From Halobacteriota archaeon (GTDB lineage Archaea; Halobacteriota; Syntropharchaeia; DAOWMC01): a stretch of 40,841 bases of DNA. A program made the position numbers and the translations under genes. Every line of letters starts with the position of its first letter. The first letter of the stretch is position 1. Of this stretch, positions 6,164 to 33,723 are shown piece by piece. The notes below the pieces were generated by a model that worked only from the letters and a program-made list of their open reading frames with translations, was not told where the DNA came from and searched no databases. The stretch spans positions 1-40,841 of the forward strand of contig JAXHUQ010000003.1 of NCBI GenBank assembly GCA_034189535.1. The letters run 5' to 3'.

Positions 6164-7453
6164 TCAAGCTTCAACTCTCTTTTTTATTTTTATCTTAGCC
6201 TCTTCTATATCGTCCTTCTCCCAGATCTGTCTAACTTTTGCTTTACCAAGCTCGCTAGAGATCTTCTGCAACCTGCCACTCACTTTAAGTGTCATATTGT
6301 CATCAGTTTCTGGAATAATTACCTCTTCTGTCTTCTTCTTCTCGAATTCAATCGGTTTGAGTGCCCTGGATGTATCTATCTTTTCAAATGGTCCATATTT
6401 TATCTGAGATATCGCTTTATCCCACTCACTATTCCAGGATGCTTCTGAAAGAGGGGTATGGTTGACAACTTCCCGATCGATAGATATCACACCGTAGGCA
6501 CAGGCATTATAGCAGGCTTTGCAGTAGATACATAGCTCATCATTCACACCTATCTTCTCTTCTGGTGACGATGGTAGATACCATGCCTTTGCAGGACATA
6601 TCTTCACACATGCCTGACAACCTTGAGGATCGCACTTGGGTAAGTTTGCCTCAACAATCTCTACACTGCCTTCCATCGGTTTTTCAATTTCGATGGCGCC
6701 ATAGGGGCATATAAGAAGACAACTTCCGCACTTTATGCACTTTTCCTCGTCAATATCAATCCCACCTTCTATCTCAAAAGAAACATCAATAGGGTCTTCG
6801 CTTTCGACAGTTATTGCATCTTCAGGGCAGATTCTTTCGCAGATCTTGCAGTAATCACACCTCATCTCATCCACCATCAGATCCTTGAACGGGGCAAGAT
6901 CTTCGGATGTGAACTCGCGTTCTATGGGGATTATTGCTTCACAAAACTCAGCACATACACCACAAAAGTTGCACTTGCCCATATCAATATCAATACTTCC
7001 GTTTACGCCCTCTTTTAAGGGAGCAACCTTTTCCTTTTTTGGTATATTGAGGTTCAATTTTATTGCTTCTTGTGGGCAGACCTTCTCACATAATACACAT
7101 GGTAAGCAGTCCTCGTTTACAGATATTTTAGAATCAAGATGGGGGTAATCCTCAAGATCTAGGATACTCTCACCATCAAAGTACATCTCCATTGCATGGA
7201 CAGGACAGAATGCGGCACACATACCACAAAACGAACAGGAGTCAGGGTCTATCATAACCGGAGGAGCATCCATTCCCGTTGCTATCTCCGGTATCGGACC
7301 GAGCTCGAGGGCATCTGAGGGGCATATGTCAACACATATACCACACCCAACGCATCTCTTGTAATCGTATATATGTTCCTTTGATCTGTCACCTGCTTTT
7401 TGATTATAAATAAACTTAGAACCTTCAAAATCTGATTCGACCATGATATCCAT
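6164..7453 (-). CDS. fwdF: Polyferredoxin with 8 [4Fe-4S] motifs, FwdF-like
   Basis: Eight CxxCxxCxxxC-type motifs; CVDICPSDALELGPIPEIA N-terminus typical of FwdF. Confidence 0.75.
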   Translation of the reverse strand: MDIMVESDFEGSKFIYNQKAGDRSKEHIYDYKRCVGCGICVDICPSDALELGPIPEIATGMDAPPVMIDPDSCSFCGMCAAFCPVHAMEMYFDGESILDLEDYPHLDSKISVNEDCLPCVLCEKVCPQEAIKLNLNIPKKEKVAPLKEGVNGSIDIDMGKCNFCGVCAEFCEAIIPIEREFTSEDLAPFKDLMVDEMRCDYCKICERICPEDAITVESEDPIDVSFEIEGGIDIDEEKCIKCGSCLLICPYGAIEIEKPMEGSVEIVEANLPKCDPQGCQACVKICPAKAWYLPSSPEEKIGVNDELCIYCKACYNACAYGVISIDREVVNHTPLSEASWNSEWDKAISQIKYGPFEKIDTSRALKPIEFEKKKTEEVIIPETDDNMTLKVSGRLQKISSELGKAKVRQIWEKDDIEEAKIKIKKRVEA

Positions 7454-7632
7454 ATGGATATATATTCATTTCTCGATGTATTTAAGTGTTTCATATTTGA
7501 TGTGGTTGATACGAGGTCTTTTTGAGGTTTTTTCGTCACGACTAAGCTTTGCAGAAGGATGGATCGAACGGTTCCTCGATGAGGATTTTAAGTATGAATT
7601 GTTAGGTTGTTGAGTATATTTGGATGTCTGGT

Positions 7633-7798
7633 TTTATTTCATCTTCAAAATACTTTTTACATATTTCTGTTCAGTTTCTTTAAGTTTTAGACTAAACTCC
7701 TCGTTTGTTTTGGCATTCTTTTTTATAGATTCGATTATTTTTGTGGAATAATTATCTTGAATATTGCTGTCTGGTATTGGTATTATTGTGTCTGTCCG
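7633..7798 (-). pseudogene. Gene fragment resembling the C-terminus of a restriction specificity (HsdS/type IIG) domain
   Basis: Startless frame TDTIIPIPDSNIQDNYSTKIIESIKKNAKTNEEFSLKLKETEQKYVKSILKMK*, with the IPIP-xx-IQ plus long-helix pattern. Confidence 0.35.
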
Positions 7799-8180
7799 AT
7801 TCAAACCCTGCAAGTATCAACTGTCTATACTTGCCTGTCGATGCTTTTTTATTCCTTGTGGGGATCTGTGCTTCCGCTCGCACTTCCTCCCTTATCACCT
7901 TATGTATAGGCTCTGCATCATATCGCACAGTATCAAGTCCGAGAATCTCCTTTAATTTTGGCATCTCCTCGGTGATCTCTACTACCTCTCTGTACTTCAG
8001 CCTCAACCTCTTTTTTATGCAACCTATGACAAATAGCTGAGGCTGTGTGTAGTCGTGCTTGGAGAATCTGCTAGAATAAGCAGTCATGGATCTTTTAGCG
8101 GTTTTATAAAGGTGTTTGACAAAGCTTATTAGTTCAGACTCTTTATCTTTTACTTGTAATTTATCTTCTCTATGTTTCAA
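7752..8180 (-). pseudogene. IS5-family transposase remnant with internal deletion
   Basis: N-terminal YSSRFSKHDYTQPQL...LKYREVVE joined directly to the late YDAEPIHKVIREE...IP...GKYR segment; most of the DDE core is missing. Confidence 0.75.
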
Positions 8181-8455
8181 TAAATAGGGGATGTTATCCT
8201 ATTATATCTTAATTTGGTGAGGTTTTCTATGGAGCCATTATTAGTTGTTCTTGCATACATTAAAGCATCTTTTAATCCATTGTCTGGATCATCATCTGGA
8301 TGTTTGGTATCAATAGCAACTATTGGAATTTTATTTATGGATAATAAGTAATCTGGACGATATTCCTTTTTGCTTCTTCCCATTCCTATCGATCTAATAT
8401 GGATTGTCTCTTTGGTGTGGATATTCTTATCTGTATATCCCAACATTTTTATAAA
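8177..8455 (-). pseudogene. Fragment of a type I HsdR_N / type IIG restriction nuclease domain
   Basis: LGY...YRPDYLL...IVAIDTKHP...ALMYA (PD-(D/E)xK-type pattern); truncated on both sides, with its upstream end at the IS terminal repeat. Confidence 0.6.
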
Positions 8456-9748
8456 CCCAAACTCCGCATTTTAATTCATAACCTTCACTTATCCCCCAGG
8501 TTTTTCCATTTCCCCCTACCGATTTGTCCGGCCCTGGAAACTCCCAATCGTTTTTCTTTAATTACGCTAACAATCCCAAACATACATGGAGTCACGTTTA
8601 GCCGAAAACGATATTAATTCTAACCCACGTGAAAGATATCCCACTCAAGATTCAAAAAACGTTCAATAACTTGAAGAAAGTAGAGGCATCCCACATCGAG
8701 TTAAAATTAATCAAAAACAACTACTACGTCTACCGCGCCACAAGTGAATGGGACAAGGAAAAAGGAAGGTAAGGAAAATAACCGAGTACATTGGCTCGAT
8801 AGACCGCGATGGTGTATTCACGAAAAAGAGATTAAGGTCACACATTCAAGAGTCCGGCCATGAGATTTTTGAGTATGGAAATAGCATGCTTGCCAGATAT
8901 TTGTTGAAAGATATCGGAGACCTCCCGTCAGAAAAGACACCTTACTGAAAAGAGCTTATTTCCGCGGCAATAATCAAGGCAATCGATCCCAAACTTCTGA
9001 GGCTATTTGCTTCCAGATGGGAAAAGTTGTACATATCAAGGTTGATCGATGTTAGTCTTTGTCCCAAACACCTTTCATCTGTTTTGTCCGGTGTGGGTGA
9101 GGGAATATACCTTTGGCATGACGTTTTTTCAAAACATACAACTAAAGACGACCTTCTACTGTATGATTTATCATCTGTTTTCACATATTCGAAGAACATT
9201 AAACTCGCAGAGAAAGGATATCTGACTTACCTTGTGGAATGGATGTCTTTTATGGATCTATGGAGGATATTACAACAATTAGAGACTTCGTTGAAAGATC
9301 CCAAAGAAATGACCTTGGATTTATTTTTGATAGAGGCTTGAAACGTAAACATGTTGGAATTATCTGTCTAGTTTCAGATATGGATAAAGAATGAACTGAT
9401 GTATTTGACTTGTATAAAGGTATAAAAGATGTAGAACTGAAATTTGATACTATGAAAAACGAATTGGAGTCTGATAAGACTTATTTGAGATCGAAAGATG
9501 CTGTAAGGGGTTATTTTTTTGTTACGTTTCTTGCATTGAGGATCTATTTTATGATTTTGAAGAGATTGAGAGAAAAGGGGCTCACAAACAAGATATCTGG
9601 GGGTGAGGTGTTATTTGAGCTCTCGAAAATTGAAAAGATTTTGGAAAAGAACGGGAGGGAGTACTTTGCAAAAATTCCAAAGAGTGCAAGGAGAATTAGT
9701 TCATTGTTTCCTGAAGCTTTACCTATGGGTTAAACTGCGGAGTTATGG
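8456..9748 (+). mobile_element. Degenerate IS1634-like insertion sequence
   Basis: Terminal inverted repeats CCCAAACTCCGCATTTTAA (8456-8474) and TTAAACTGCGGAGTTATGG (9730-9748), 16/19 match; broken transposase pieces YYVYRATSEWD, RKITEYIG, LLYDLSSVFTYS and VELKFDTMKNELESDKTYL. Confidence 0.8.
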
Positions 9749-11029: not shown

Positions 11030-11386
11030 ATGAAAAAGGACAGCCATGAAGAGGCTGAAAGATGGATAAAACAGGCTGAGGTCGATTTTGCATCGTTAAG
11101 CCAACTTTTCAAGGTGAAGATCTATCATCTGGTCTGTTTTATGGCACAACAAGCAGCAGAGAAGGCTTTAAAAGCACATATCTATGCCCAGGGAGAAGAA
11201 CTGATTCTCACTCATTCAGTTGCAAAGTTGTGCAATGCGGCATCTGAATATGATGCATCATTTGAAGGATTGGGAAAGTCTGTTAAAAATCTCGATTCGT
11301 TCTATATCCAGGCCCGGTATCCAAACGGCATGATAGATGGGATTTTTGCTGAATTTTTTGAGAAAGAATTCACAGGATTTCTATAG
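11030..11386 (+). CDS. HEPN domain protein, probably C-terminally truncated; no MNT partner
   Basis: CFMAQQAAEKALKA, THSV and YIQARYP motifs; final helix missing. Confidence 0.8.
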   Translation: MKKDSHEEAERWIKQAEVDFASLSQLFKVKIYHLVCFMAQQAAEKALKAHIYAQGEELILTHSVAKLCNAASEYDASFEGLGKSVKNLDSFYIQARYPNGMIDGIFAEFFEKEFTGFL

Positions 11387-12558: not shown

Positions 12559-14006
12559 AGGTATATTTGCTAAACCCTCCTTTTGTTAAAGGATTTAGTA
12601 GGGGTGTAAGAGGGGTTGGTGAAGCAACTCGCGGAGGGACTTTGTATTGCCCGATTTGGTTATCCTATGCAGCAGGTGTATTGGAACAAGAACACGAAGT
12701 TAAGTTGATAGATGCACAAGCAAGGCAGTGGTTAATCGAAGATGTTTTACAAGATTTAAATAGATTCGATCCAGATTTAATCGTTGTTGAGACTAATTTT
12801 TCAAGTTTGAATAATGACCTTGACATGGTAGATAAAATTAAGACTATATCAAACGCCGCTATTACTATGGTGGGCCCTCCCACTTCCCAATACTTTGAAA
12901 AAATTATAATTGGAAACGGTGTAGGTATTGTAGCAAGGCATGAGTATGATATTACTCTAAAAGAAGTTGCAAATGCGATTCGAAGCGGTACAAGTCTAAA
13001 AAAAATAAGGGGTATTTCTTATATTGAATGTGGTAAGGCGATTAACAATCCTGACAGAGAATATACCAACTCTGAAGATTTGGATGGAATGCCGTTCGTA
13101 TCAAAAACATATAAAAAACATCTCAACTTGAAGGATTACTTTTTAAGTTCTTCTCTTTATCCTACGATACAGATATTCACAGGGAGAGGGTGTCCAAATC
13201 AATGTACATTCTGTTCTTGGCCTGAGACTTTAATGGGAAGAAAGTACAGAGTCAGAAGTGTAGCGAATGTTTTGGATGAATTTGAATATATCGAAAATGA
13301 GCTTCCTGAAGTAAAAGAGATCTTCATTGAGGATGACACATTCACTATCAGTAAAAAGAGAGTTTTGGCGTTTTGCGAAGATTATAAGAAAAGAGGTTTA
13401 AACATAACCTGGTCATGCAACGCTAGGGCCAATTCACTGGATTTGGAAACGATGAAAGAGATGAAGAAGGCCAACTGCCGATTGCTTATCGTTGGATATG
13501 AATCGGGAAATGATGAGATCTTAATAAACATAAAAAAGGGCATAACATCTCAACACATAAGGGATTTTTCAAAAAATGCACGAAAAGCCGGATTGCTCGT
13601 ACATGGTGATTTTATAATTGGTTTACCAGGTGAGACAAATGAGACAATTATGGTTACAAAGAAAATGATACATGAGGTAAAACCCGATCTCTTACAAGTT
13701 CTGGTCCCCCAACCAGTCCCGGGAACACATCTTTATGATTGGTGTAAAGAACATAAATTTTTACTCACAGAGGATCCAAATGAGTATCTGGATGAAAATG
13801 GACATCAAAAGGCAATTATTTCTTATCCGGAACTTAGCAATGAAGAGATGGTAAAAGAGGTGGATGAAATATTGAAAAATTATTATATGAGTCCGTCTTA
13901 CATACCGCTAGCTATGAGGCAGGTGCTTAGGAAAAACGGATTGGACGAAGCGAGAAGACTCTGGTATTCTATGAGGATGTTTTTAGGTTATGTTGGGAGG
14001 AGGTGA
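12555..14006 (+). CDS. B12-binding-domain radical SAM protein, HpnJ-like
   Basis: LLNPP...PIWLSYAA N-terminus, GRGCPNQCTFC, EDDTFT, GYESG and DFIIGLPGET; ATGA overlap with GT2. Confidence 0.88.
   Translation: MKVYLLNPPFVKGFSRGVRGVGEATRGGTLYCPIWLSYAAGVLEQEHEVKLIDAQARQWLIEDVLQDLNRFDPDLIVVETNFSSLNNDLDMVDKIKTISNAAITMVGPPTSQYFEKIIIGNGVGIVARHEYDITLKEVANAIRSGTSLKKIRGISYIECGKAINNPDREYTNSEDLDGMPFVSKTYKKHLNLKDYFLSSSLYPTIQIFTGRGCPNQCTFCSWPETLMGRKYRVRSVANVLDEFEYIENELPEVKEIFIEDDTFTISKKRVLAFCEDYKKRGLNITWSCNARANSLDLETMKEMKKANCRLLIVGYESGNDEILINIKKGITSQHIRDFSKNARKAGLLVHGDFIIGLPGETNETIMVTKKMIHEVKPDLLQVLVPQPVPGTHLYDWCKEHKFLLTEDPNEYLDENGHQKAIISYPELSNEEMVKEVDEILKNYYMSPSYIPLAMRQVLRKNGLDEARRLWYSMRMFLGYVGRR
13890..14006 (+). 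repeat. Radical SAM 3' end, copy A (in use)
   Basis: Encodes SPSYIPLAMRQVLRKNGLDEARRLWYSMRMFLGYVGRR*. Confidence 0.95.
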
Positions 14007-14010
14007 AACA

Positions 14011-14235
14011 ATGGTAAGTATTGTAAGAATAAAAGAAGTTAAGGAGAATGTAGTGCTACGCAAAGAGGACTTTGAAAGTCTGATAGGGGAGATGGAATCT
14101 TTGATGGAGACCATAGAGATTTTAAGCGATAAGGATCTGATGGGACAGATAAAGAATAGTGAAAAAGATATTAAAGAAGGAAATGTCCTCGAAATAATGA
14201 CTGAGAGTGATATGAATAATTTGTTTGTGGAGTGA
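14011..14235 (+). CDS. Putative RelB/Phd-like antitoxin
   Basis: Small acidic protein with ESLMETIEILSDKDLMGQIK, directly upstream of RelE; RBS GGAGGAGGTGA. Confidence 0.8.
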   Translation: MVSIVRIKEVKENVVLRKEDFESLIGEMESLMETIEILSDKDLMGQIKNSEKDIKEGNVLEIMTESDMNNLFVE

Positions 14236-14239
14236 TCTT

Positions 14240-14548
14240 GTGAGATACAGCCTGAAGTACACCAAGACCTTCAAGAAACAGATTGATAGGCTGAAGAAGA
14301 AAGACAAAGCATTGATGGAAGAGTTGATGAAGAAGGTGAAGAAACTACAGGATGTACCGCATTCCGGAAAGCTCCTGAAATATCAACTCTCTTATTATAG
14401 GTATAGGTCTCTGCGAATAAAGAAAAAATATAGACTTGTTTATGTGGTAGATGAGAATGAAAACACGGTGATACTGGTTGCATTTGGACACAGAGAGGAA
14501 ATATATAAGCTCATGCTGTTGTCATTTGAAGAAGAACGGAAAGAGTGA
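14240..14548 (+). CDS. RelE/ParE-family toxin
   Basis: Basic protein with PHSGKLL, YRSLRI, YRLVY and FGHREEIY. Confidence 0.88.
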   Translation: MRYSLKYTKTFKKQIDRLKKKDKALMEELMKKVKKLQDVPHSGKLLKYQLSYYRYRSLRIKKKYRLVYVVDENENTVILVAFGHREEIYKLMLLSFEEERKE

Positions 14549-14591
14549 TGGTATGAATTATATAGGAACGGCGTTGAAGGAATACCGCCCA

Positions 14592-14708
14592 AGTCCGTCT
14601 TACATACCGTTAGCGATGAGGCAGGTATTTCGAAGGAATGGGTTGGATGAAGCTAGAAGGCTCTGGTATTCGATGAGAATGTTTTTGGGGTATGTTGGAG
14701 GGAGGTGA
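14592..14708 (+). repeat. Radical SAM 3' end, stranded copy B
   Basis: Encodes SPSYIPLAMRQVFRRNGLDEARRLWYSMRMFLGYVGGR*; 35/38 aa identical to copy A. Confidence 0.95.
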
Positions 14709-14713
14709 TTACA

Positions 14714-14953
14714 ATGGTAATAGAAGTAAAAGTTCCAAAAGAGATCGATCTGAAGATAAAGAGTGATAAGGACCTTGAAGGAATCATAAAGAGGAAGATA
14801 GAAATGGAGATCTTTAAAGAAATAAAAGGAGATATATTCCTCTCGATGCTCTTTGATAAACTCCTTGAAGAGAGTGAACTAACAGGTGGAGATGTTGATG
14901 AGATTGATCACAAGGTTAAGAAGGGCATCATGGAGAATCTGGGATGGAAATAG
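14714..14953 (+). CDS. Putative VapB-type antitoxin
   Basis: Small protein overlapping the PIN gene; RBS GGAGGTGA supplied by copy B. Confidence 0.7.
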   Translation: MVIEVKVPKEIDLKIKSDKDLEGIIKRKIEMEIFKEIKGDIFLSMLFDKLLEESELTGGDVDEIDHKVKKGIMENLGWK

Positions 14954-15369
14954 TCGCTGACACGAATGTGATAATTTCAGCGCTGTTAAGAGATGGACTG
15001 ACAAGAAAACTATTGCTCCTCGCTCCTTTTGACTTTTACACCGTGGCTTATTCAAAAATCGAGATAGAAACGCACAGAAATGAGCTTCTTAATAGATCCA
15101 AACTTGATGAGGAGGCTTTTCAGTACCTTATAGATTTAATTTTCAGTAAAATTTGTGTCGTGGAATCCAATGTTATCGAAGCTTACAGGAAGAAAGCTAT
15201 TGATGTCATGCGTGGTATAGATATTAGCGATTCCCCTTTCATCGCGTTGGCAATGCATTTAAATTGTTCAATATGGTCGAATGATAAGCATTTTAAAGAA
15301 CAAAATGTTGTCAAAGCATATACAACTAAAGAGATCATGGCGTTATTGGGGGAGGCTGCAGAAGAATGA
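14944..15369 (+). CDS. PIN-domain (VapC-type) toxin
   Basis: VADTNVIISAL, DISDSPFIALA and IWSNDKHF acidic motifs. Confidence 0.9.
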   Translation: MEIVADTNVIISALLRDGLTRKLLLLAPFDFYTVAYSKIEIETHRNELLNRSKLDEEAFQYLIDLIFSKICVVESNVIEAYRKKAIDVMRGIDISDSPFIALAMHLNCSIWSNDKHFKEQNVVKAYTTKEIMALLGEAAEE

Positions 15370-15476
15370 TATCGCTCGCTCAGAGGCAGGTGTTTAGGAG
15401 AAACGGGTTGGATGAATTAAAGATGCTCTGGTATTTGATGAGGATGTTTTTGGGGTATGTTGGACGTGTAAAATGA
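15366..15476 (+). repeat. Radical SAM 3' end, stranded copy C (36-aa mini-ORF)
   Basis: MISLAQRQVFRRNGLDELKMLWYLMRMFLGYVGRVK*; ATGA overlaps with the PIN stop and with the GT4 start. Confidence 0.92.
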
Positions 15477-21790: not shown

Positions 21791-23065
21791 TTACCCTTGA
21801 CCATTATCCATATTACTCATTACCCAACCCATCCCAACTCCACTTGCTATGGCCACGTTACCAATAATCCAAGAATATCCTACTCCAATTATACCCATAC
21901 TTTGCATCAACAGGTAACTTGCCACCAGAGTTATAATTGCAACCCCCCCATAGACATAGATCACAGGCATCACCTCTTTTTGAACTCGTTTTGTCGTTAC
22001 ATAAATTACATTAATCGCAAAAGGTATGCTTCCCAAAGCAAGAACTAGTAACAACTCGTATGAATTCGTTGCATACTCTTCACCGAAGAATCCCAGGATA
22101 TTTCTTCCAAACAAAAATATTCCAATTATTGCTGGCCCAAGTAACAGAAATATGAATTTTAATGCCCTTTTAGTATTGGCACTTAGAGTCTCTTCATTAT
22201 GAGATCCTTCAGCAAGCAAGGAGATAGTAGTCCATCTTGGGATTGTGAGTAACAACATGGAAATTTGCCAAGACATAAAGAAATATGCATTCATTTCCGC
22301 CCCTAAAACATTTATCACCATAATGGGTAACACAAAAACGGGAAGATATTCGAATATTTTTGCAAAATAATTACCAAATGAAAAATGAAAAATATCTTTG
22401 ATAATCTCTATATTTACTGTTGGAATCGGTTTATATGGGAAAATCCTTGATGCTAAAAAGATTCCGAACCCAAAAGCAAGAATTGGAGTTAATCCATACG
22501 GGGCATAAATCCCCAATTCTCCGAATGTTACCAGGAAAGGAATGATTCCCAACCTTGCAAGCGTTACAAGTGTTTGAAATAATGAATATTCAGTTCTTCT
22601 AAATCCGGCAAAAACACCCTGACTTAGCAAACCAGGCAAAGATGTGGTAGCTGAAAAAAATACAAAAAAGAATAAGAAAAATTTATTTTCCCTTATGACG
22701 CTCAATGAAGGCGACCATATGTTTATCCCTGCTACAAATATTAAAGTCAGTATAAGCGATATTATAAATGATATTGTGAGGCACGTGTTAATCAGTTCGG
22801 ATTTATCTTCTCTTTCCGGTAAGAATCTAACAAGTGCAATGTCAAACCCTAATACCGAGAAAATTGAAATTAAACCCATTGCAGAGATAATCGCAGAAGC
22901 AAGTCCTACATCTTCAGTGGAGTAAAATCTTGCAGCGATGATCCAGAAGAAAAAACCAGAACCAGCATTGGTCAAGGATGACATCATCAAAAATATCGAG
23001 TTCCTATACAACGGATCCCTCAAATGCCCCTTCAGCTCTTTTATGCTTGGTATTTTCAGTTTCAT
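21791..23065 (-). CDS. Oligosaccharide flippase (Wzx/MOP family)
   Basis: LYRNSIFL, GFFFWIIAARFY and VRFLP; about 12 TM helices. Confidence 0.88.
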   Translation of the reverse strand: MKLKIPSIKELKGHLRDPLYRNSIFLMMSSLTNAGSGFFFWIIAARFYSTEDVGLASAIISAMGLISIFSVLGFDIALVRFLPEREDKSELINTCLTISFIISLILTLIFVAGINIWSPSLSVIRENKFFLFFFVFFSATTSLPGLLSQGVFAGFRRTEYSLFQTLVTLARLGIIPFLVTFGELGIYAPYGLTPILAFGFGIFLASRIFPYKPIPTVNIEIIKDIFHFSFGNYFAKIFEYLPVFVLPIMVINVLGAEMNAYFFMSWQISMLLLTIPRWTTISLLAEGSHNEETLSANTKRALKFIFLLLGPAIIGIFLFGRNILGFFGEEYATNSYELLLVLALGSIPFAINVIYVTTKRVQKEVMPVIYVYGGVAIITLVASYLLMQSMGIIGVGYSWIIGNVAIASGVGMGWVMSNMDNGQG

Positions 23066-23073
23066 ATTGATAT
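22987..23073 (-). repeat. Flippase 5' end, copy 1 (in use)
   Basis: MKLKIPSIKELKGHLRDPLYRNSIFL plus upstream ATATCAAT. Confidence 0.95.
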
Positions 23074-23205
23074 TCCGTAAAGCGTAATCAATGATTCGTA
23101 ATGCGTGATCAGTGATTAGTAAAGTGTAAAGCGTGATCAGTAAAACGGGATGTGTTACCCATTACCCTTCACGCATAACTCATTACCCGTTTCACCCATC
23201 ACCTG
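23074..23205. repeat. Inverted heptamer array 1 (long imperfect hairpin)
   Basis: About 10-11 units NNNGTRA (tccgtaa agcgtaa tcaatga ttcgtaa tgcgtga...), spacer tgtg, then about 7 units TYACNNN (ttaccca ttaccct tcacgca taactca...). Confidence 0.9.
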
Positions 23206-23565
23206 TTAATGTTTTCCCTTTTGATGCTTTATCAGGCCGAGTAACATTCTTCTTATTCTTTCAATGCTTCCGTTCATGTCCTCGGTTTCCAGGAACCCTA
23301 ATTCTTTCGATAATTGCAACTGTGTTTCTAATTCGGCAAGAGAGCCCAACGATACATAAAGGAATTGAATGAATTCCTTGTTTGAATTTCTCGCTGCACC
23401 TTCAGCTATATTACTCGGAATTGATACTGATGCCCGTCTTATTTGAGATACCAATCCATAAGTCTCTTCTTTGGGGAACTCTGCTGTTACTATGTATATC
23501 TCTTTTGCCAGGGCCATTGCCTCTTTCCAAACATCAAGATCCTTGTGTGTTTTAATTCCACTCAT
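23206..23565 (-). CDS. Four-helix-bundle protein (23S rRNA IVP-like family)
   Basis: HKDLDVWK, FPKEETYGLVSQIRRASVSIPSNIAEG and GSLAELETQL. Confidence 0.93.
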   Translation of the reverse strand: MSGIKTHKDLDVWKEAMALAKEIYIVTAEFPKEETYGLVSQIRRASVSIPSNIAEGAARNSNKEFIQFLYVSLGSLAELETQLQLSKELGFLETEDMNGSIERIRRMLLGLIKHQKGKH

Positions 23566-23617
23566 AACTCATTACTCTTCACGCATTACCCATTACTCGT
23601 TACTCATTCATCACTTA
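23565..23617. repeat. Direct heptamer array upstream of the four-helix-bundle gene
   Basis: taactca ttactct tcacgca ttaccca ttactcg ttactca ... tcactta. Confidence 0.88.
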
Positions 23618-23842
23618 TATCTTTTCAATGATGGATAGGTATTCATCCCTTGTCATACCAACTGTTTTCATATTATTTCTTATGATGGTGACAGGAACTT
23701 CATCGTACTTTGGAATGACTACGGCTCTTTTTGCGTTTTGGTGATGGAATATCATATGGTCCCCTTTCTGCCTTACGAATTTGCAACCATATTTCTCGAA
23801 GATTTTAACCTGTGTTTTCCAGTTTGTGGGTTTGATCTTCAT
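23615..23842 (-). CDS. hicA: HicA-family toxin
   Basis: YGCKFVRQKGDHMIF and VVIP motifs. Confidence 0.88.
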   Translation of the reverse strand: MKIKPTNWKTQVKIFEKYGCKFVRQKGDHMIFHHQNAKRAVVIPKYDEVPVTIIRNNMKTVGMTRDEYLSIIEKI

Positions 23843-24120
23843 TACAGAACTCCAACCGAGATCGATAGCTCCTCAAATCCCACTATCTTCTTCTCAGTTT
23901 TAAGCACCCCATCCTCTAAAACATAACCAGCTTCTGCCAAAAAATCTTTCAATGTGCCAAGTTTGGCTGTCTCTTCAAATTGTATTTGAATAACCTCTTC
24001 CAGATTCTTTTTTGCCTCTTCGTGTGTGTGACCACAACTTGCGATATCCAATTCCGGACAGTAGGCAGTAAACATCCCTCCCTCCTTCCATATCTCAACC
24101 GTGGCAATTATATTTTTCAT
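23842..24120 (-). CDS. hicB: HicB-family antitoxin
   Basis: AYCPELDIASCGHTHEEAKKNLEE; TAATG coupling to hicA. Confidence 0.88.
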   Translation of the reverse strand: MKNIIATVEIWKEGGMFTAYCPELDIASCGHTHEEAKKNLEEVIQIQFEETAKLGTLKDFLAEAGYVLEDGVLKTEKKIVGFEELSISVGVL

Positions 24121-24184
24121 CGGATATCCCTCACACTTTATTAGTAAAGATACTATATTGTAACTTTCGCATCATCTATTTGTC

Positions 24185-24271
24185 TCAAAAATATCGAGTT
24201 CTTATACAAAGGATCCCTCAAATGCATCCTCAGCTCGTTTATGCTTGGTATTTTTAGTTTCATATTGATAT
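24185..24271 (-). repeat. Flippase 5' end, stranded copy 2
   Basis: MKLKIPSINELRMHLRDPLYKNSIFL then unrelated RQIDDAKVTI*; same upstream ATATCAAT as copy 1. Confidence 0.95.
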
Positions 24272-24365
24272 TCCGTGATGCGTAATCCGTAAACCGTGAT
24301 CGTTGATGCATAATGTGTTACCCATTACTCGTCACCCATAACTCATTACCAATTACTTGTTATCC
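24272..24365. repeat. Inverted heptamer array 2
   Basis: tccgtga tgcgtaa tccgtaa accgtga tcgttga tgcataa tgtg ttaccca ttactcg tcaccca taactca ttaccaa ttacttg. Confidence 0.9.
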
Positions 24366-24366
24366 T

Positions 24367-24624
24367 TTACTTATAAGCTCTCCTTCTAGGTAAAATAGCA
24401 TAAATTACAATAACATAACCCTCTTGAAGTTCAAAAAGAACCCGATATTCTCGCACCCTCAAACGATAATGGTTCTTATATCCTTTTAACTTCCTTATAT
24501 CAAGCTCAGGAGAAAAACCGCTCTTAAGTTTGGTTATCTTGTCCTTTATCACACCACTTATGCTTGGATCTAAACCGTCTAACTGTTTTTGCGCCTTTCT
24601 TTCGAGAAATACCTTATATTTCAT
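24367..24624 (-). CDS. RelE/ParE-family toxin
   Basis: DIRKLKGYKNHYRLRVREYRVLF and PRRRAY. Confidence 0.9.
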   Translation of the reverse strand: MKYKVFLERKAQKQLDGLDPSISGVIKDKITKLKSGFSPELDIRKLKGYKNHYRLRVREYRVLFELQEGYVIVIYAILPRRRAYK

Positions 24625-24778
24625 TCAGTTCAATCTTTTTATTGCTCTTTCTATCTTCGTAATCCTCTATTTCTTTAATTTCATCTTCTTCAGGCTCTTC
24701 TATACCTATCAATCTTGAATCGATTATCCCTTCAATCTTCTCAAGCATAAGTTTTATCTCGGTTACTTCTTTACTCAT
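24614..24778 (-). CDS. Putative antitoxin, 54 aa (not in the ORF track)
   Basis: MSKEVTEIKLMLEKIEGIIDSRLIGIEEPEEDEIKEIEDYEDRKSNKKIELNEI*; acidic, GGTGA RBS, overlaps relE start. Confidence 0.8.
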   Translation of the reverse strand: MSKEVTEIKLMLEKIEGIIDSRLIGIEEPEEDEIKEIEDYEDRKSNKKIELNEI

Positions 24779-24817
24779 TTCACCCATATTTATACCAAAT
24801 ATTACATTAGGTTGTTT

Positions 24818-24832
24818 GTATTTAACCTTTTA
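24818..24832 (-). promoter_or_regulatory. BRE/TATA promoter of the RelBE cassette
   Basis: AAAAGGTTAAATA on the minus strand, about 40 bp before the antitoxin ATG. Confidence 0.6.
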
Positions 24833-24858
24833 TCTCAAGATCGTTACTTGCTTTATTT

Positions 24859-24902
24859 AAATGCCCCCTAATCTCTTTTATGCTTGGTATTTTTAGTTTC
24901 AT
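24859..24902 (-). repeat. Flippase 5' end, stranded copy 3
   Basis: MKLKIPSIKEIRGHL then unrelated NKASNDLEIKG*; GGGGAG RBS upstream. Confidence 0.92.
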
Positions 24903-24916
24903 TTCTCCCCAACAGA

Positions 24917-25162
24917 TCAGATCTTCTTTTTACGGTAGAAAAGGTCAATATACTCCTCATTTGTGAGGCCTGCTCTTGTAATGAGCTTCTTAAGAAGCCC
25001 TACACCAAGTGTTTTACCTTTGTGCACTGGTATGGACAGGTGAATATCACAATCTTCTTTCACCAGGATATAATAACTCCCTTCAACATGGTTCACTTTT
25101 TAACCTTCTTTTTTAAAAGTGGCGATATGTTTATCCCCACTCGCCCTTGGGAGTTTAGGCAT
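24917..25162 (-). pseudogene. hicA: HicA toxin pseudogene
   Basis: MPKLPRASGDKHIATFKKEG*KVNHVEGSYYIL...SIPVHKGKTLGVGLLKKLI; in-frame TAA at 25100-25102 and GSH motif changed to GSY. Confidence 0.85.
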
Positions 25163-25180
25163 GTGTTGTTCCGGTGATAT

Positions 25181-25393
25181 CTACTGATATGTCGAGTTTA
25201 TGCTGAAAGGAGGGGATTTTAGATGTTCTCCTACTTCCCTCAGCCTTGATCTTAAACAACCGACAATCGCTTCGTTTATATTCTCGATCGCCTCTTCAAG
25301 ATTTTCTCCTTCTGAAAGACAGCCCGGAAGGTCGGCGCATTCGACCACATACCGCCCATCTTCATCGATCTCAATTGTGATACGAAATTCCAT
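25181..25393 (-). CDS. hicB: HicB-family antitoxin (short)
   Basis: EDGRYVVECADLPGCLSEGENLEEAIENINEAI. Confidence 0.88.
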   Translation of the reverse strand: MEFRITIEIDEDGRYVVECADLPGCLSEGENLEEAIENINEAIVGCLRSRLREVGEHLKSPPFSINSTYQ

Positions 25394-26001
25394 ACTTTAC
25401 CTTTTTTTGTTACATAGTCATAATGCTTTTCGCACTATAAATCATCTCAATCAAATTTAAACCCTTCTTTTCGCCGCAAGGCAGAGATGGCCTATGGCAT
25501 AGCCATGGGTCGTAGACTGGACCGAGGAGCAAGATAGATATAACGTGCCGGAGTCCAAAGTGTAAATATTTCCTGAAGTAGAATGGGAAGGACATTATTA
25601 AGAACGGTAAGAATCGTTCAGGCCATCAAAGATTTTTCTGCTTCAGATGTAACACATATTTTGTCGAGATATCGGATACAATACACCACTCTATCGAAAG
25701 CAATTATCCGAAAGTGAAATAACCAACATATCTGGAATTGGAATGATTTTTCACAAAGTACCCTCAAATTATGATAATTTGTTATACAGGTGGTGAATGT
25801 AAATCTTTTGAAATGAGTTCATGGCTAAATAACATGGCGATAGCCTCTTTTTTAAGATCCTGTTTTTAGCATTTTGATCTCCGAAACGTTTATGCTGTTT
25901 TGTTGACATATAGTAATTAGAAGTATACAACCAATGGTTGTTTAAACCATTGATCATACTTTCTGTCGATTCACTCGTTAGCCCCGATAGGGTGTGTTGT
26001 A

Positions 26002-32421: not shown

Positions 32422-33054
32422 ATGGTTAAAGCTAATCGTAGATTGTCATTGTCCCAAGATGAGGCACAGATGGGTATCGGTACATTGATCATATTTATTG
32501 CTATGGTCCTTGTTGCGGCTGTTGCGGCAGCTGTTCTGATACAGACAAGCGGTGTCCTTCAGCAGAGGGCAACCGAGACAGGAAAAGAGGCGACAGCCGA
32601 GGTATCATCAAACATTGGCGTCGAGACGATCATAGGAGAACGGCTTACGGCAAGTTCAGCCAATCTTCAGATGTTAAATATCTCAATCAAGGTTATGGCG
32701 GGAGCTGGCGATATTGATATATCTCAGATGAGAGTTGTAATCCAGAACGAGACAACACGTAAAGACAATATACAGCTAAATACGTCATCAAGTACCACCG
32801 CAGACGCAACTCATTTTGCAGTTATTGTGTATAGGGATGTGGATGACTCATACAATGCTAGCTCTGGTAATTACGTTATAAATAGTGGAGATCTGATTGA
32901 AATAGATGTTAATTTAACGGCAATAGGTACCAACATTCCTGCAAGGGAACCATTGAGAATCGAACTGATTCCGGAGCATGGGGCAGCAGTGATAAAGGAA
33001 CTTACAATGCCTGCATCATACGGTGTAGACATCTTCATACCGGTGTTCCCGTGA
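32422..33054 (+). CDS. flaB: Archaellin
   Basis: Class III signal, then QMGIGTLIIFIAMVLVAAVAAAVLIQTSGVLQQRA. Confidence 0.93.
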   Translation: MVKANRRLSLSQDEAQMGIGTLIIFIAMVLVAAVAAAVLIQTSGVLQQRATETGKEATAEVSSNIGVETIIGERLTASSANLQMLNISIKVMAGAGDIDISQMRVVIQNETTRKDNIQLNTSSSTTADATHFAVIVYRDVDDSYNASSGNYVINSGDLIEIDVNLTAIGTNIPAREPLRIELIPEHGAAVIKELTMPASYGVDIFIPVFP

Positions 33055-33114: not shown

Positions 33115-33723
33115 ATGAGGGCTAACAGGAAGGCTACGATTCACTGTGCTGAAGATGCACAGATGGGTATAGGTACACTCATTATATTTATATCCATGGT
33201 CCTTGTCTCTGCCGTTGCCGCTGCAGTATTGATTTCCACATCCGGCATTCTCCAGGAACGTGCAACCGACACCGGCAAAGAGGCGACCGAAAGTGTTGCA
33301 ACAAATCTAAAGGTGGTTCAGACCAGTGGAAGTCGTCCAACAGCTTACAATCACACTCTTGAAGATATCTCTATGAGGATTACTGTTAGCGCAGGGAGCA
33401 GACAGATAGATCTGAGCCAGGTTGCAATAAACATAATAGACGGAATCACTTCAGTGGATCTTACTTATAGTAACAGCACCGCTAACGCAACAAAATTCAA
33501 CATCACTGTTTTACGTGATGAAGACGGCTCATTCAGTGCCCAGTACCCAATTATAAATTCAGGTGATCTCGTAGAAGTCTTAATTGATGCAGATGCTGCC
33601 GGTCTTGTCATCGATCCAAGGACAAATGTTCAGATGTTCATAGTACCTGAGATCGGTAATCCTGTCCTTCACAAATTCAGAACTCCAAGCTCTTATGGCC
33701 TCAATCTACAGATATCACTTTAA
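33115..33723 (+). CDS. flaB: Archaellin, second paralogue
   Basis: QMGIGTLIIFISMVLVSAVAAAVLISTSGILQERA. Confidence 0.93.
   Translation: MRANRKATIHCAEDAQMGIGTLIIFISMVLVSAVAAAVLISTSGILQERATDTGKEATESVATNLKVVQTSGSRPTAYNHTLEDISMRITVSAGSRQIDLSQVAINIIDGITSVDLTYSNSTANATKFNITVLRDEDGSFSAQYPIINSGDLVEVLIDADAAGLVIDPRTNVQMFIVPEIGNPVLHKFRTPSSYGLNLQISL

Follow-up and report, generated by a model that had tools for sequence, protein, structure and literature searches.

The stretch analysed here, called the window, is a 40,841-nucleotide (nt) contig (C118, accession JAXHUQ010000003.1, analysed whole) of a 1.8-Mb genome (G000, assembly GCA_034189535.1; 194 contigs, 79% complete) from an uncultured methane-seep archaeon of the Halobacteriota. 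A gene for a Wzx-like flippase lies within its glycosylation cluster (neighbours GT4, GT2, and DUF2206). Judged from the sequence, this locus is a tandem accretion array, in which three small, self-contained type II toxin-antitoxin (TA) cassettes have been added in the first flippase codons. Each cassette is flanked by direct repeats of 44–190 nt derived from the flippase start, and the copy adjoining the gene keeps the flippase intact. The cassettes are mobile modules common to co-resident archaea and move between species, gained one by one or in blocks at conserved gene ends with a direct repeat left each time. Our favoured explanation, to which we give about an even chance, is that cassettes are exchanged among co-resident archaea and added by homologous recombination in conserved gene ends, with TA addiction blocking their loss between the repeats.

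On the minus strand, the array begins at a dispersed repeat and runs through cassette C, start copy 3, cassette B, a heptamer hairpin with a further 44 nt, and start copy 2, which continues with cassette A; a heptamer run, an IVP gene, and a strong heptamer hairpin follow before the intact flippase (Table 1). The flippase has the Polysacc_synt domain, the polytopic build of about 420 amino acids (aa), and the glycosylation-cluster setting of Wzx/MOP polysaccharide flippases, and its relatives are 412–427 aa long. Three copies of its start had been noticed in an earlier inspection of the letters (the sequence-only reading), and both a repeat finder and self-BLAST of the 1.8-Mb genome (E values of 9e-35, 1e-8, and 4.5e-7) placed them at the same positions. 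The repeat finder returned repeat D5 (22987–23109 and 24185–24307, 85%) and repeat D6 (44-nt copies at 23022–23065, 24220–24263, and 24859–24902, 89–91%). Alignment agreed with that reading on the break points as well: likeness to the gene ends at 24185 in copy 2, after 26 codons, and at 24859 in copy 3, after 44 nt or about 15 codons. The coding part of copy 2 is 91% identical to copy 1, and the repeat to which it belongs also takes in the heptamer hairpin (D3, 77%) and 44 nt in front of the ATG, reaching about 190 nt. The start copies differ from one another by 9–15% and have no common word above 18 nt.

All genomes compared are metagenome assemblies, often broken at these repeats. Population evidence was taken from contigs of four runs (X1–X4) of one study, which may derive from related organisms; X1 may be the sample behind the G000 assembly. 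In X1, single contigs with a depth of 114–117 span both start-to-leader junctions, against 92–106 in the flanks. Other X1 contigs end at each start copy, and the summed depth over the cassettes is 158–198 against the same flank values. Further joints were seen in X1 (21779>24334, side 23) and X3 (23597>24645, one contig). An assembler might have concatenated strain variants of one locus, as could be suspected of any metagenome-assembled genome whose relatives' contigs often end at the repeats in question. However, with 9–15% divergence and no common word above 18 nt, neither k-mer collapse nor chaining is possible, and single X1 contigs bridge each start-to-leader junction at flank depth. An artefact of this kind is therefore scarcely credible.

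The three cassettes are predicted type II TA modules (HicAB and ParE/RelE), with toxicity and neutralisation expected from their families: in each, a small gene precedes one for a small toxin that has a family domain, and the paired genes overlap by 1–11 nt. In cassette A the upstream partner's match is weak and UPF0150-like (E 0.007), and in cassette B the 57-aa partner has no Pfam match; both are called antitoxins by position only. Relatives of cassette A, 79–81% identical in nucleotides, were found in six genomes of family f4, with homology beginning about 40 nt before the ATG. Those of cassette B are 77–79% identical and occur in G027, G055, and G056. The TATA-like element GGTTAAATAC at 24817–24826, in the cassette B leader, is conserved in two examined relatives (77–79% identical), and a promoter in the cassette that follows copy 3, as the sequence-only reading had it, is plausible. 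In cassette C, the hicA gene that was called a pseudogene indeed has an in-frame TAA at 25100–25102, and its Pfam HicA match (29.0 bits) covers profile positions 18–58 only; the relatives L053 and L055 carry an intact HicA of 81–83 aa in cassettes of this type.

Table 1. Features of the flippase array and of the sister array in the window
Feature	Position	Strand	Basis or remark
Intact Wzx-like flippase, 424 aa	21791..23065	-	Open reading frame; Pfam Polysacc_synt (PF01943) 51.8 bits (cut-off 28.2), Polysacc_synt_3 41.6
Start copy 1, first 26 flippase codons	22987-23065	-	Part of intact gene
Start copy 2, 26 stranded codons, broken into cassette A leader at 24185/24184	24185..24263	-	Repeat finder, self-BLAST, alignment
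Start copy 3, 44 nt (about 15 codons), own unrelated upstream sequence	24859..24902	-	Repeat finder, self-BLAST, alignment
Repeat 2, upstream part: 44-nt stretch and heptamer hairpin	24264..24371	-	D3, D5; 89% over 155 nt to G001 native upstream region and start
Cassette A: leader 24121-24184, HicB antitoxin 23842-24120, HicA toxin 23615-23842	23615..24184	-	HicA_toxin 51.1 bits (cut-off 27)
Cassette B: leader, 57-aa antitoxin 24614-24787, ParE/RelE toxin 24367-24624	24367..24858	-	ParE_toxin 30.4 bits (cut-off 23)
Cassette C: leader 25394-25515, HicB 25181-25393, hicA pseudogene 24917-25162	24903..25515	-	HicB_lk_antitox 41.6 bits (cut-off 27)
Upstream region of native flippase type; its long hairpin of GTAATGR-type heptamers stops 14 nt short of the ATG	23066..23205	-	-41.8 kcal/mol, z -4.46
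Four-helix-bundle gene (23S rRNA IVP / bAvd-like)	23206..23565	-	PF05635 135.1 bits; 83-88% nucleotide relatives in G031, G039, G055, G027
Heptamer run after hicA, displaced 5' arm of native hairpin	23559..23611	-	D2; 28 nt 100% identical to G001 hairpin arm
Dispersed repeat, distal bound of array	25520..25731		89-91% copies on C46, C38, C68, C179
Sister array: radical SAM 3' end, three times (13890-14006, 14592-14708, 15357-15473)	13890..15473	+	Repeat finder, Pfam
Sister array cassettes: antitoxin and ParE; antitoxin and PIN	14011-14548; 14714-15369	+	GT4 begins at 15473

The state of the locus before any gain was seen in G001, a genome of the same genus (90% complete). Flippase upstream regions were aligned across relatives, and that of G001 is cassette-free and collinear: its flippase (83% aa identity over 285 residues, then the contig end) is directly preceded by the heptamer hairpin, and an unrelated 238-aa gene precedes both. 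Since G001 has the hairpin and the start without a cassette, they represent the native state and not an invention of the cassettes. The hairpin after RelE is not significant alone (z -0.8) and aligns as a homologue of the native hairpin of G001. The content of the array is thus not identical in all relatives, whereas identical content would have told against the sequence-only reading; G001 has no cassettes at its flippase and other genomes have other ones, and the flippase start is a break in synteny.

An in-place origin was also weighed, by which replication slippage or unequal crossing-over at the hairpin doubled the upstream region and start and unrelated TA genes later replaced the content. 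The copies are old enough for this (82–91% alike, none clearly nearer to another than to the G001 start), and a hairpin built of repeats is a plausible site of slippage. Yet the three cassettes are unrelated in sequence, which requires extra steps of replacement; the same cassettes occur at 77–98% identity in other genomes; and copy 3 has no hairpin. We judge such an origin very improbable.

The IVP gene was apparently inserted into the hairpin (23066–23611). The G001 hairpin is free of it, and the 5' arm of that hairpin matches the 28 nt preceding the window IVP gene at 100%. Runs of GTAATGR-type heptamers occur in G000 only at this locus, and in relatives (L006, L048, L051, and L052) they flank IVP genes. 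IVP genes are nested in the stems of rRNA intervening sequences, and by analogy the gene may itself be a hairpin-targeting insert.

A second array in the window repeats the last 117 nt of a B12-binding radical S-adenosylmethionine (SAM) gene, in copies 84% and 68–80% alike, the third of which ends in the native ATGA overlap with the start of GT4. The antitoxin ATGs lie 4–5 nt past the stop of the repeated fragment, behind its GGAGGTGA, and the fragment therefore acts as the translational leader of the cassette. The sequence-only reading had likened the two arrays. The parallel holds; the fresh start which cassettes were thought to supply there does not, the repeat being a 3' end. The architecture that it described for the flippase array is supported, and so is its proposal that each gain of a cassette strands a gene start.

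Both cassettes of the radical SAM array, together with repeat copies 2 and 3, were found on contig C222 of G001 with 97.6% identity over 1451 nt. Other long matches between the two genomes (at least about 900 nt) are 69–88% identical, or 73–88% outside one multi-copy gene family. The block adjoins, and lies upstream of, a sulfatase-like gene in G001, not GT4, and no full-length orthologue of the radical SAM gene was found in that genome (best match 33%; the contig ends at the repeat). The second cassette has 3 mismatches in about 665 nt (up to 99.5% identity). Identity is about 94% in copy 2 and about 89% in copy 3, where two patches of differences stand between identical stretches; in one patch, copy 3 of G001 resembles window copies 1 and 2, and similarity ends inside copy 3, 10 nt before the fragment end. 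Such mosaic mismatches are the pattern expected of crossovers and conversion within the repeats. By these identities, the block was probably exchanged recently between G000 and G001.

Two further pieces of the window may have been exchanged. At 11030–11386, a HEPN gene between two GT2 genes is 88% identical to G001, the neighbouring GT2 being 80% identical, and at 7801–7924 a stretch of 124 nt is 97% identical to G001 inside a region of about 85%.

Gene ends also punctuate a third cassette site in G000, on contig C48 (L039, 1–1000). There, a GT2 start fragment of 104 codons precedes a DUF4258 toxin with its zinc-ribbon partner, and at the contig end the GT2 start appears a second time (46 nt, 95.7%). 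Immediately upstream is a HEPN/MNT pair, and the surroundings are again a glycosylation cluster. Contig C190 (L037, 1000–2200) may be a non-TA case of such insertion: its DUF3644 gene is enclosed by two 45-nt direct repeats (91%) that copy the 3' end of the Fic gene upstream, in a setting of Fic and type I restriction genes. Among the 17 local-repeat loci annotated in G000, the pattern is confined to C118 (twice) and C48, with C190 as a possible addition. Paralogues or domain repeats make up most of the rest (cytochromes, FilR1 regulators, ATPase c-ring, MCPs, and thiolases). C155 was rejected as a cassette site because its repeats belong to a peptide-gene family: at 7440–8800, at least 5 tandem small open reading frames (ORFs), which look like a family of precursor peptides, share the leader M.LKLEVKKLE.RETK, differ in their Cys-rich tails, and each stand behind GGAGGTGA near an AglB fragment. 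A 137-nt direct repeat (74%) in the window, at 32458–32594 and 33151–33287, lies in adjacent ORFs of 210 and 202 aa that are probably tandem paralogues.

Nucleotide comparison was extended to 79 genomes, including the three other species of the window's family, f1. Relatives of the flippase-array cassettes with 77–83% nucleotide identity were found in many f4 genomes, and 40 of the 79 genomes gave some match; the three other f1 genomes have none of these cassettes. HicB relatives were found in ANME-1/Methanophagales, ANME-2, GoM-Arc1, and Methanoperedens archaea. The class of the window holds ANME-1 (ANME, anaerobic methanotrophic archaea), because nine loci from named archaea in the HicB search are identical to loci of that class.

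The joining of TA modules to fragments of the same host genes recurs in these genomes. Polysacc_synt N-fragments or radical SAM C-fragments alternate with TA modules in L055, L049, L013, L131, and L133, and also in L074, which belongs to an unrelated lineage. Cassette A is followed by a flippase start within 20 nt in L049 and by one broken after about 18 codons in L054; after cassette B, L050 and L056 have a flippase N-fragment. L055 shows a flippase N-fragment, an AF2212-like gene with PIN, and another N-fragment, and then an intact HicB/HicA pair of the cassette C type, a further N-fragment, and PIN. Five radical SAM C-fragments stand between MNT, RelB-like, UPF0175 with DUF3368, and TumE modules in L131, a few kb upstream of an uninterrupted GT2–radical SAM–GT4 operon, and L133 has the radical SAM gene, one cassette, a fragment, and a sulfatase gene. 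In L074 (2500–7200; flippase 39% identical), three extra N-fragments lie between DUF433/DUF5615, DUF433, RelB/YafQ-ParE, and DUF3800 genes, with the cassettes in both orientations. Searching with the first 59 flippase residues gave 35 matches in 19 of the 79 genomes; 7 are in open frames of at least 400 aa and 28 in frames of 303 aa or less, some of these being cut by contig ends. As a control, a metagenome search gave 49 flippase loci without strain-level relatives (best identity 46%, apart from a short contig-end fragment with 57% over 53 residues), and extra start copies were present at 1 of the 25 distant loci with at least 1 kb of upstream DNA, namely the metagenome contig L074.

A repeat translating as ...GSAPRPRKPCKGL... 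/ ...KKSFTKET... recurs at cassette borders in L013, L015/L050, L048, and L131 (G027, G059, and G031), and cuts flippase fragments at about residue 44 in G026 and G027. It is probably a MITE-like element (MITE, a miniature transposable element with inverted repeats). The repeats around the cassette A relative in L159 turned out to be a structured MITE-like element and no gene end.

The sequence-only reading attached a regulatory meaning to the array, namely that a cassette brings a promoter and a fresh start and puts the flippase under TA autoregulation. Cassettes and flippase are co-oriented in the window, and both examined relatives retain the cassette B TATA-like element. Moreover, hicA ends 20 nt before the flippase ATG in L049 and L054, and RelE about 44 nt before one in L050 and L056; with gaps this short, co-transcription is likely there. 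In the window, however, a separate IVP gene and the hairpin of -41.8 kcal/mol stand between hicA and the flippase, and the G001 flippase has the same hairpin context with no cassette. The cassettes of L074 point both ways, and the repeat of the radical SAM array is a 3' end. Control of the flippase by its cassettes would, on these sequences, be improbable.

With homologous recombination as the favoured route, a gain would begin with uptake, from a relative, of linear DNA of the form gene end–cassette–gene end or, alternatively, with excision from another array of a circle that has one copy of the end. Host recombination inside the conserved gene end would duplicate that end, and a dedicated recombinase would be unnecessary. 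A linear donor would replace the single resident end through two offset crossovers, and a circle with one end would integrate through one. Either event would yield just the topology observed. The newest cassette would stand next to the intact gene and the most distal would be the oldest, an order that fits the broken distal hicA and the shortest repeat. Direct repeats of 44–190 nt would be expected to delete an insert readily, but loss of a live TA module would kill or arrest the cell; with loss penalised in this way, TA modules would persist, and this would account for there being hardly anything but TA modules between the repeats. The repeats would then act as portable homology arms for the next transfer. 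Homologous recombination is favoured because G000 has three unrelated targets (flippase 5' end, radical SAM 3' end, and GT2 5' end), all repeats are at least 44 nt long, tyrosine recombinases are absent from the window contig and from the listed array contigs, and the repeats diverge in a mosaic fashion.

Circular cassettes could instead be inserted at att cores in gene ends by a tyrosine or serine recombinase whose gene lies elsewhere, either integron-like or acting in trans on mini-elements that have no integrase; the stranded starts would then be attL remnants of the kind left by tandem islands at tRNA genes. Much in the arrays agrees with such site-specific accretion, and three of the observations (the 17-nt block, the beginnings of the radical SAM fragments, and the left end of cassette C) also weigh against homologous recombination. 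Each element lies between direct repeats of the target end, whose element-proximal copy makes the gene whole again. The first 44 nt are common to all three start copies and include an invariant 17-nt block, a possible core; the unequal break lengths, which the sequence-only reading took as an argument against a fixed core, are for this reason insufficient alone. Across genomes, the radical SAM fragments begin at comparable points, near residues LK(E/D)Y. The left end of cassette C (25513–25515) is a discrete junction in three different contexts, as would be expected of a site-specific element: in X4, one contig joins the hairpin, 17 start codons, and 27 nt to the cassette C leader at 25515, and X2 and X3 contigs join the heptamer hairpin arm to 25513. 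Beyond this end lies the dispersed repeat of about 160–210 nt, which has a summed depth of 390 in X1, where many contigs end at 25520. G000 also has two full tyrosine recombinase genes.

Against site-specific accretion, no recombinase gene is present in any cassette. All 3 PF00589 matches of G000 lie on contigs C117, C192, and C30, none on the window contig, and 0 of the 22 tyrosine recombinase matches in five other array-bearing genomes are on the listed array contigs, serine recombinases not having been searched in either case. Three unrelated targets in one genome would require several specificities, and in the repeats the identity between G000 and G001 decays patchily, with no single switch point. 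Rfam gave 0 matches at gathering thresholds over the whole window and thus no structured element, and inspection by eye only gave no convincing common motif at the cassette left ends and no convincing dif-like or integron-core motif in the repeats. Taken together, site-specific accretion seems to us rather unlikely, yet a rival to be taken seriously.

Several other findings also count against homologous recombination at gene ends. The start copies and the G001 start are all 82–86% alike with no nearest neighbour, and an old in-place duplication may have left them so. Cassette A relatives adjoin a flippase start at 2 of the 20 loci with at least 1 kb of downstream DNA, and long flanking direct repeats were found at 2 of the 24 loci examined for them, one of the two being the MITE-like case of L159. 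From RelE to the flippase start, the window and its two relatives have different intergenic DNA, and joint travel of cassette and start is thus no more than a possibility. The contigs examined, all from one study, gave no recombination intermediate, circle, or empty-site read, and homologous recombination does not explain how the first duplication arose.

A wider proposal is that methane- and alkane-oxidising archaea of seeps have an integrase-free counterpart of the integron, whose TA cassettes would carry a host gene end (flippase start, radical SAM end, or GT2 start) as a homology arm, home by homologous recombination, stack, and be locked in by addiction. We offer it tentatively, as possible but not probable. 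If it is true, glycosylation loci are open cassette platforms across families, and the cassette families reach other ANME lineages.

The entry of integrase-less TA islets into chromosomes has so far been mostly guessed. The arrays are a readable record of gains, with a stranded gene end for each cassette, a sister species whose site is empty, and a block found nearly unchanged in another context, and the mechanism of entry is therefore directly testable. If host recombination suffices, any conserved gene end may become a cassette platform. Homologous recombination with addiction would, if true, explain the survival of repeat-flanked inserts, as well as the strain variability of ANME surface glycosylation loci and TA genes, as reported for ANME-1. 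In these genomes, the numerous short open frames labelled "flippase" or "radical SAM" call for annotation as scars and not as genes.

Among known systems, the arrays were compared with integrons, which have reportedly been described in archaea in a preprint (bioRxiv 10.1101/2022.02.06.479319). Like the sedentary chromosomal TA arrays of Vibrio superintegrons, they consist of small co-oriented cassettes with a repeated separator (about 45–190 nt here), and in the radical SAM array the cassettes seem to lack promoters and to be translationally coupled, as integron cassettes do. In integrons, TA cassettes reportedly stabilise the arrays (10.1101/2022.08.03.502626). The arrays described here differ in that no IntI or attI is nearby (PF00589 matches are off the window contig in a genome 79% complete), the separators are direct repeats of host gene ends and not variable attC hairpins, and the host gene that serves as separator varies between arrays. 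A hairpin follows 2 of the 3 cassettes only and is native to the flippase upstream region (Rfam 0 matches, with no attC model used).

Tandem accretion at the ends of tRNA and protein genes is the work of site-specific integrases, and each insertion duplicates the gene end. The arrays share with it the flanking target repeats, the restored gene on one side, and the stranded partial copies that mark older insertions. The elements here are, however, only 0.5–1.1 kb long, consist of a TA pair with no integrase or excisionase, use three unrelated targets in one genome, and show patchy repeat divergence; a search for tyrosine recombinases only found no cognate integrase in an element or beside an array.

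Neisseria minimal mobile elements spread by homologous recombination at flanking core genes. The same route, with addiction for persistence, has been proposed for TA islets of Photorhabdus, where one TA is surrounded by a duplicated 24-bp palindrome (PMC13617665). The arrays likewise consist of tiny TA-only islands with no mobility genes, have an empty site in G001, and include a block of 97.6% identity against 73–88% elsewhere. Those islets and elements have unduplicated flanks and do not stack, whereas here the homology arm is copied into the array with each gain.

The nearest organisms are ANME-1, for which hicAB, parE, and other TA operons in strain-variable insertions and deletions were described in 2026, with horizontal transfer inferred; in E. 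coli, their HicA functioned as a toxin and their HicB as its antitoxin, and they stabilised plasmids (PMC13385816). These hotspots belong to the same organism group and hold the same cassette families. They differ in what is described: the words flippase, direct repeat, glycosyl, radical SAM, and truncated have 0 occurrences in the main text of PMC13385816, which describes neither an array punctuated by gene ends nor a mechanism for one. Full-text literature searching, which leaves absence unproven, found no description of TA cassette arrays with duplicated host gene ends as separators. The array behaves like an integron or a tandem att accretion, yet fits neither, having no IntI or attC and, by the search for tyrosine recombinases, no cognate integrase. 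Cassette accretion is already known, and the gene-end-punctuated TA array is a new form of it.

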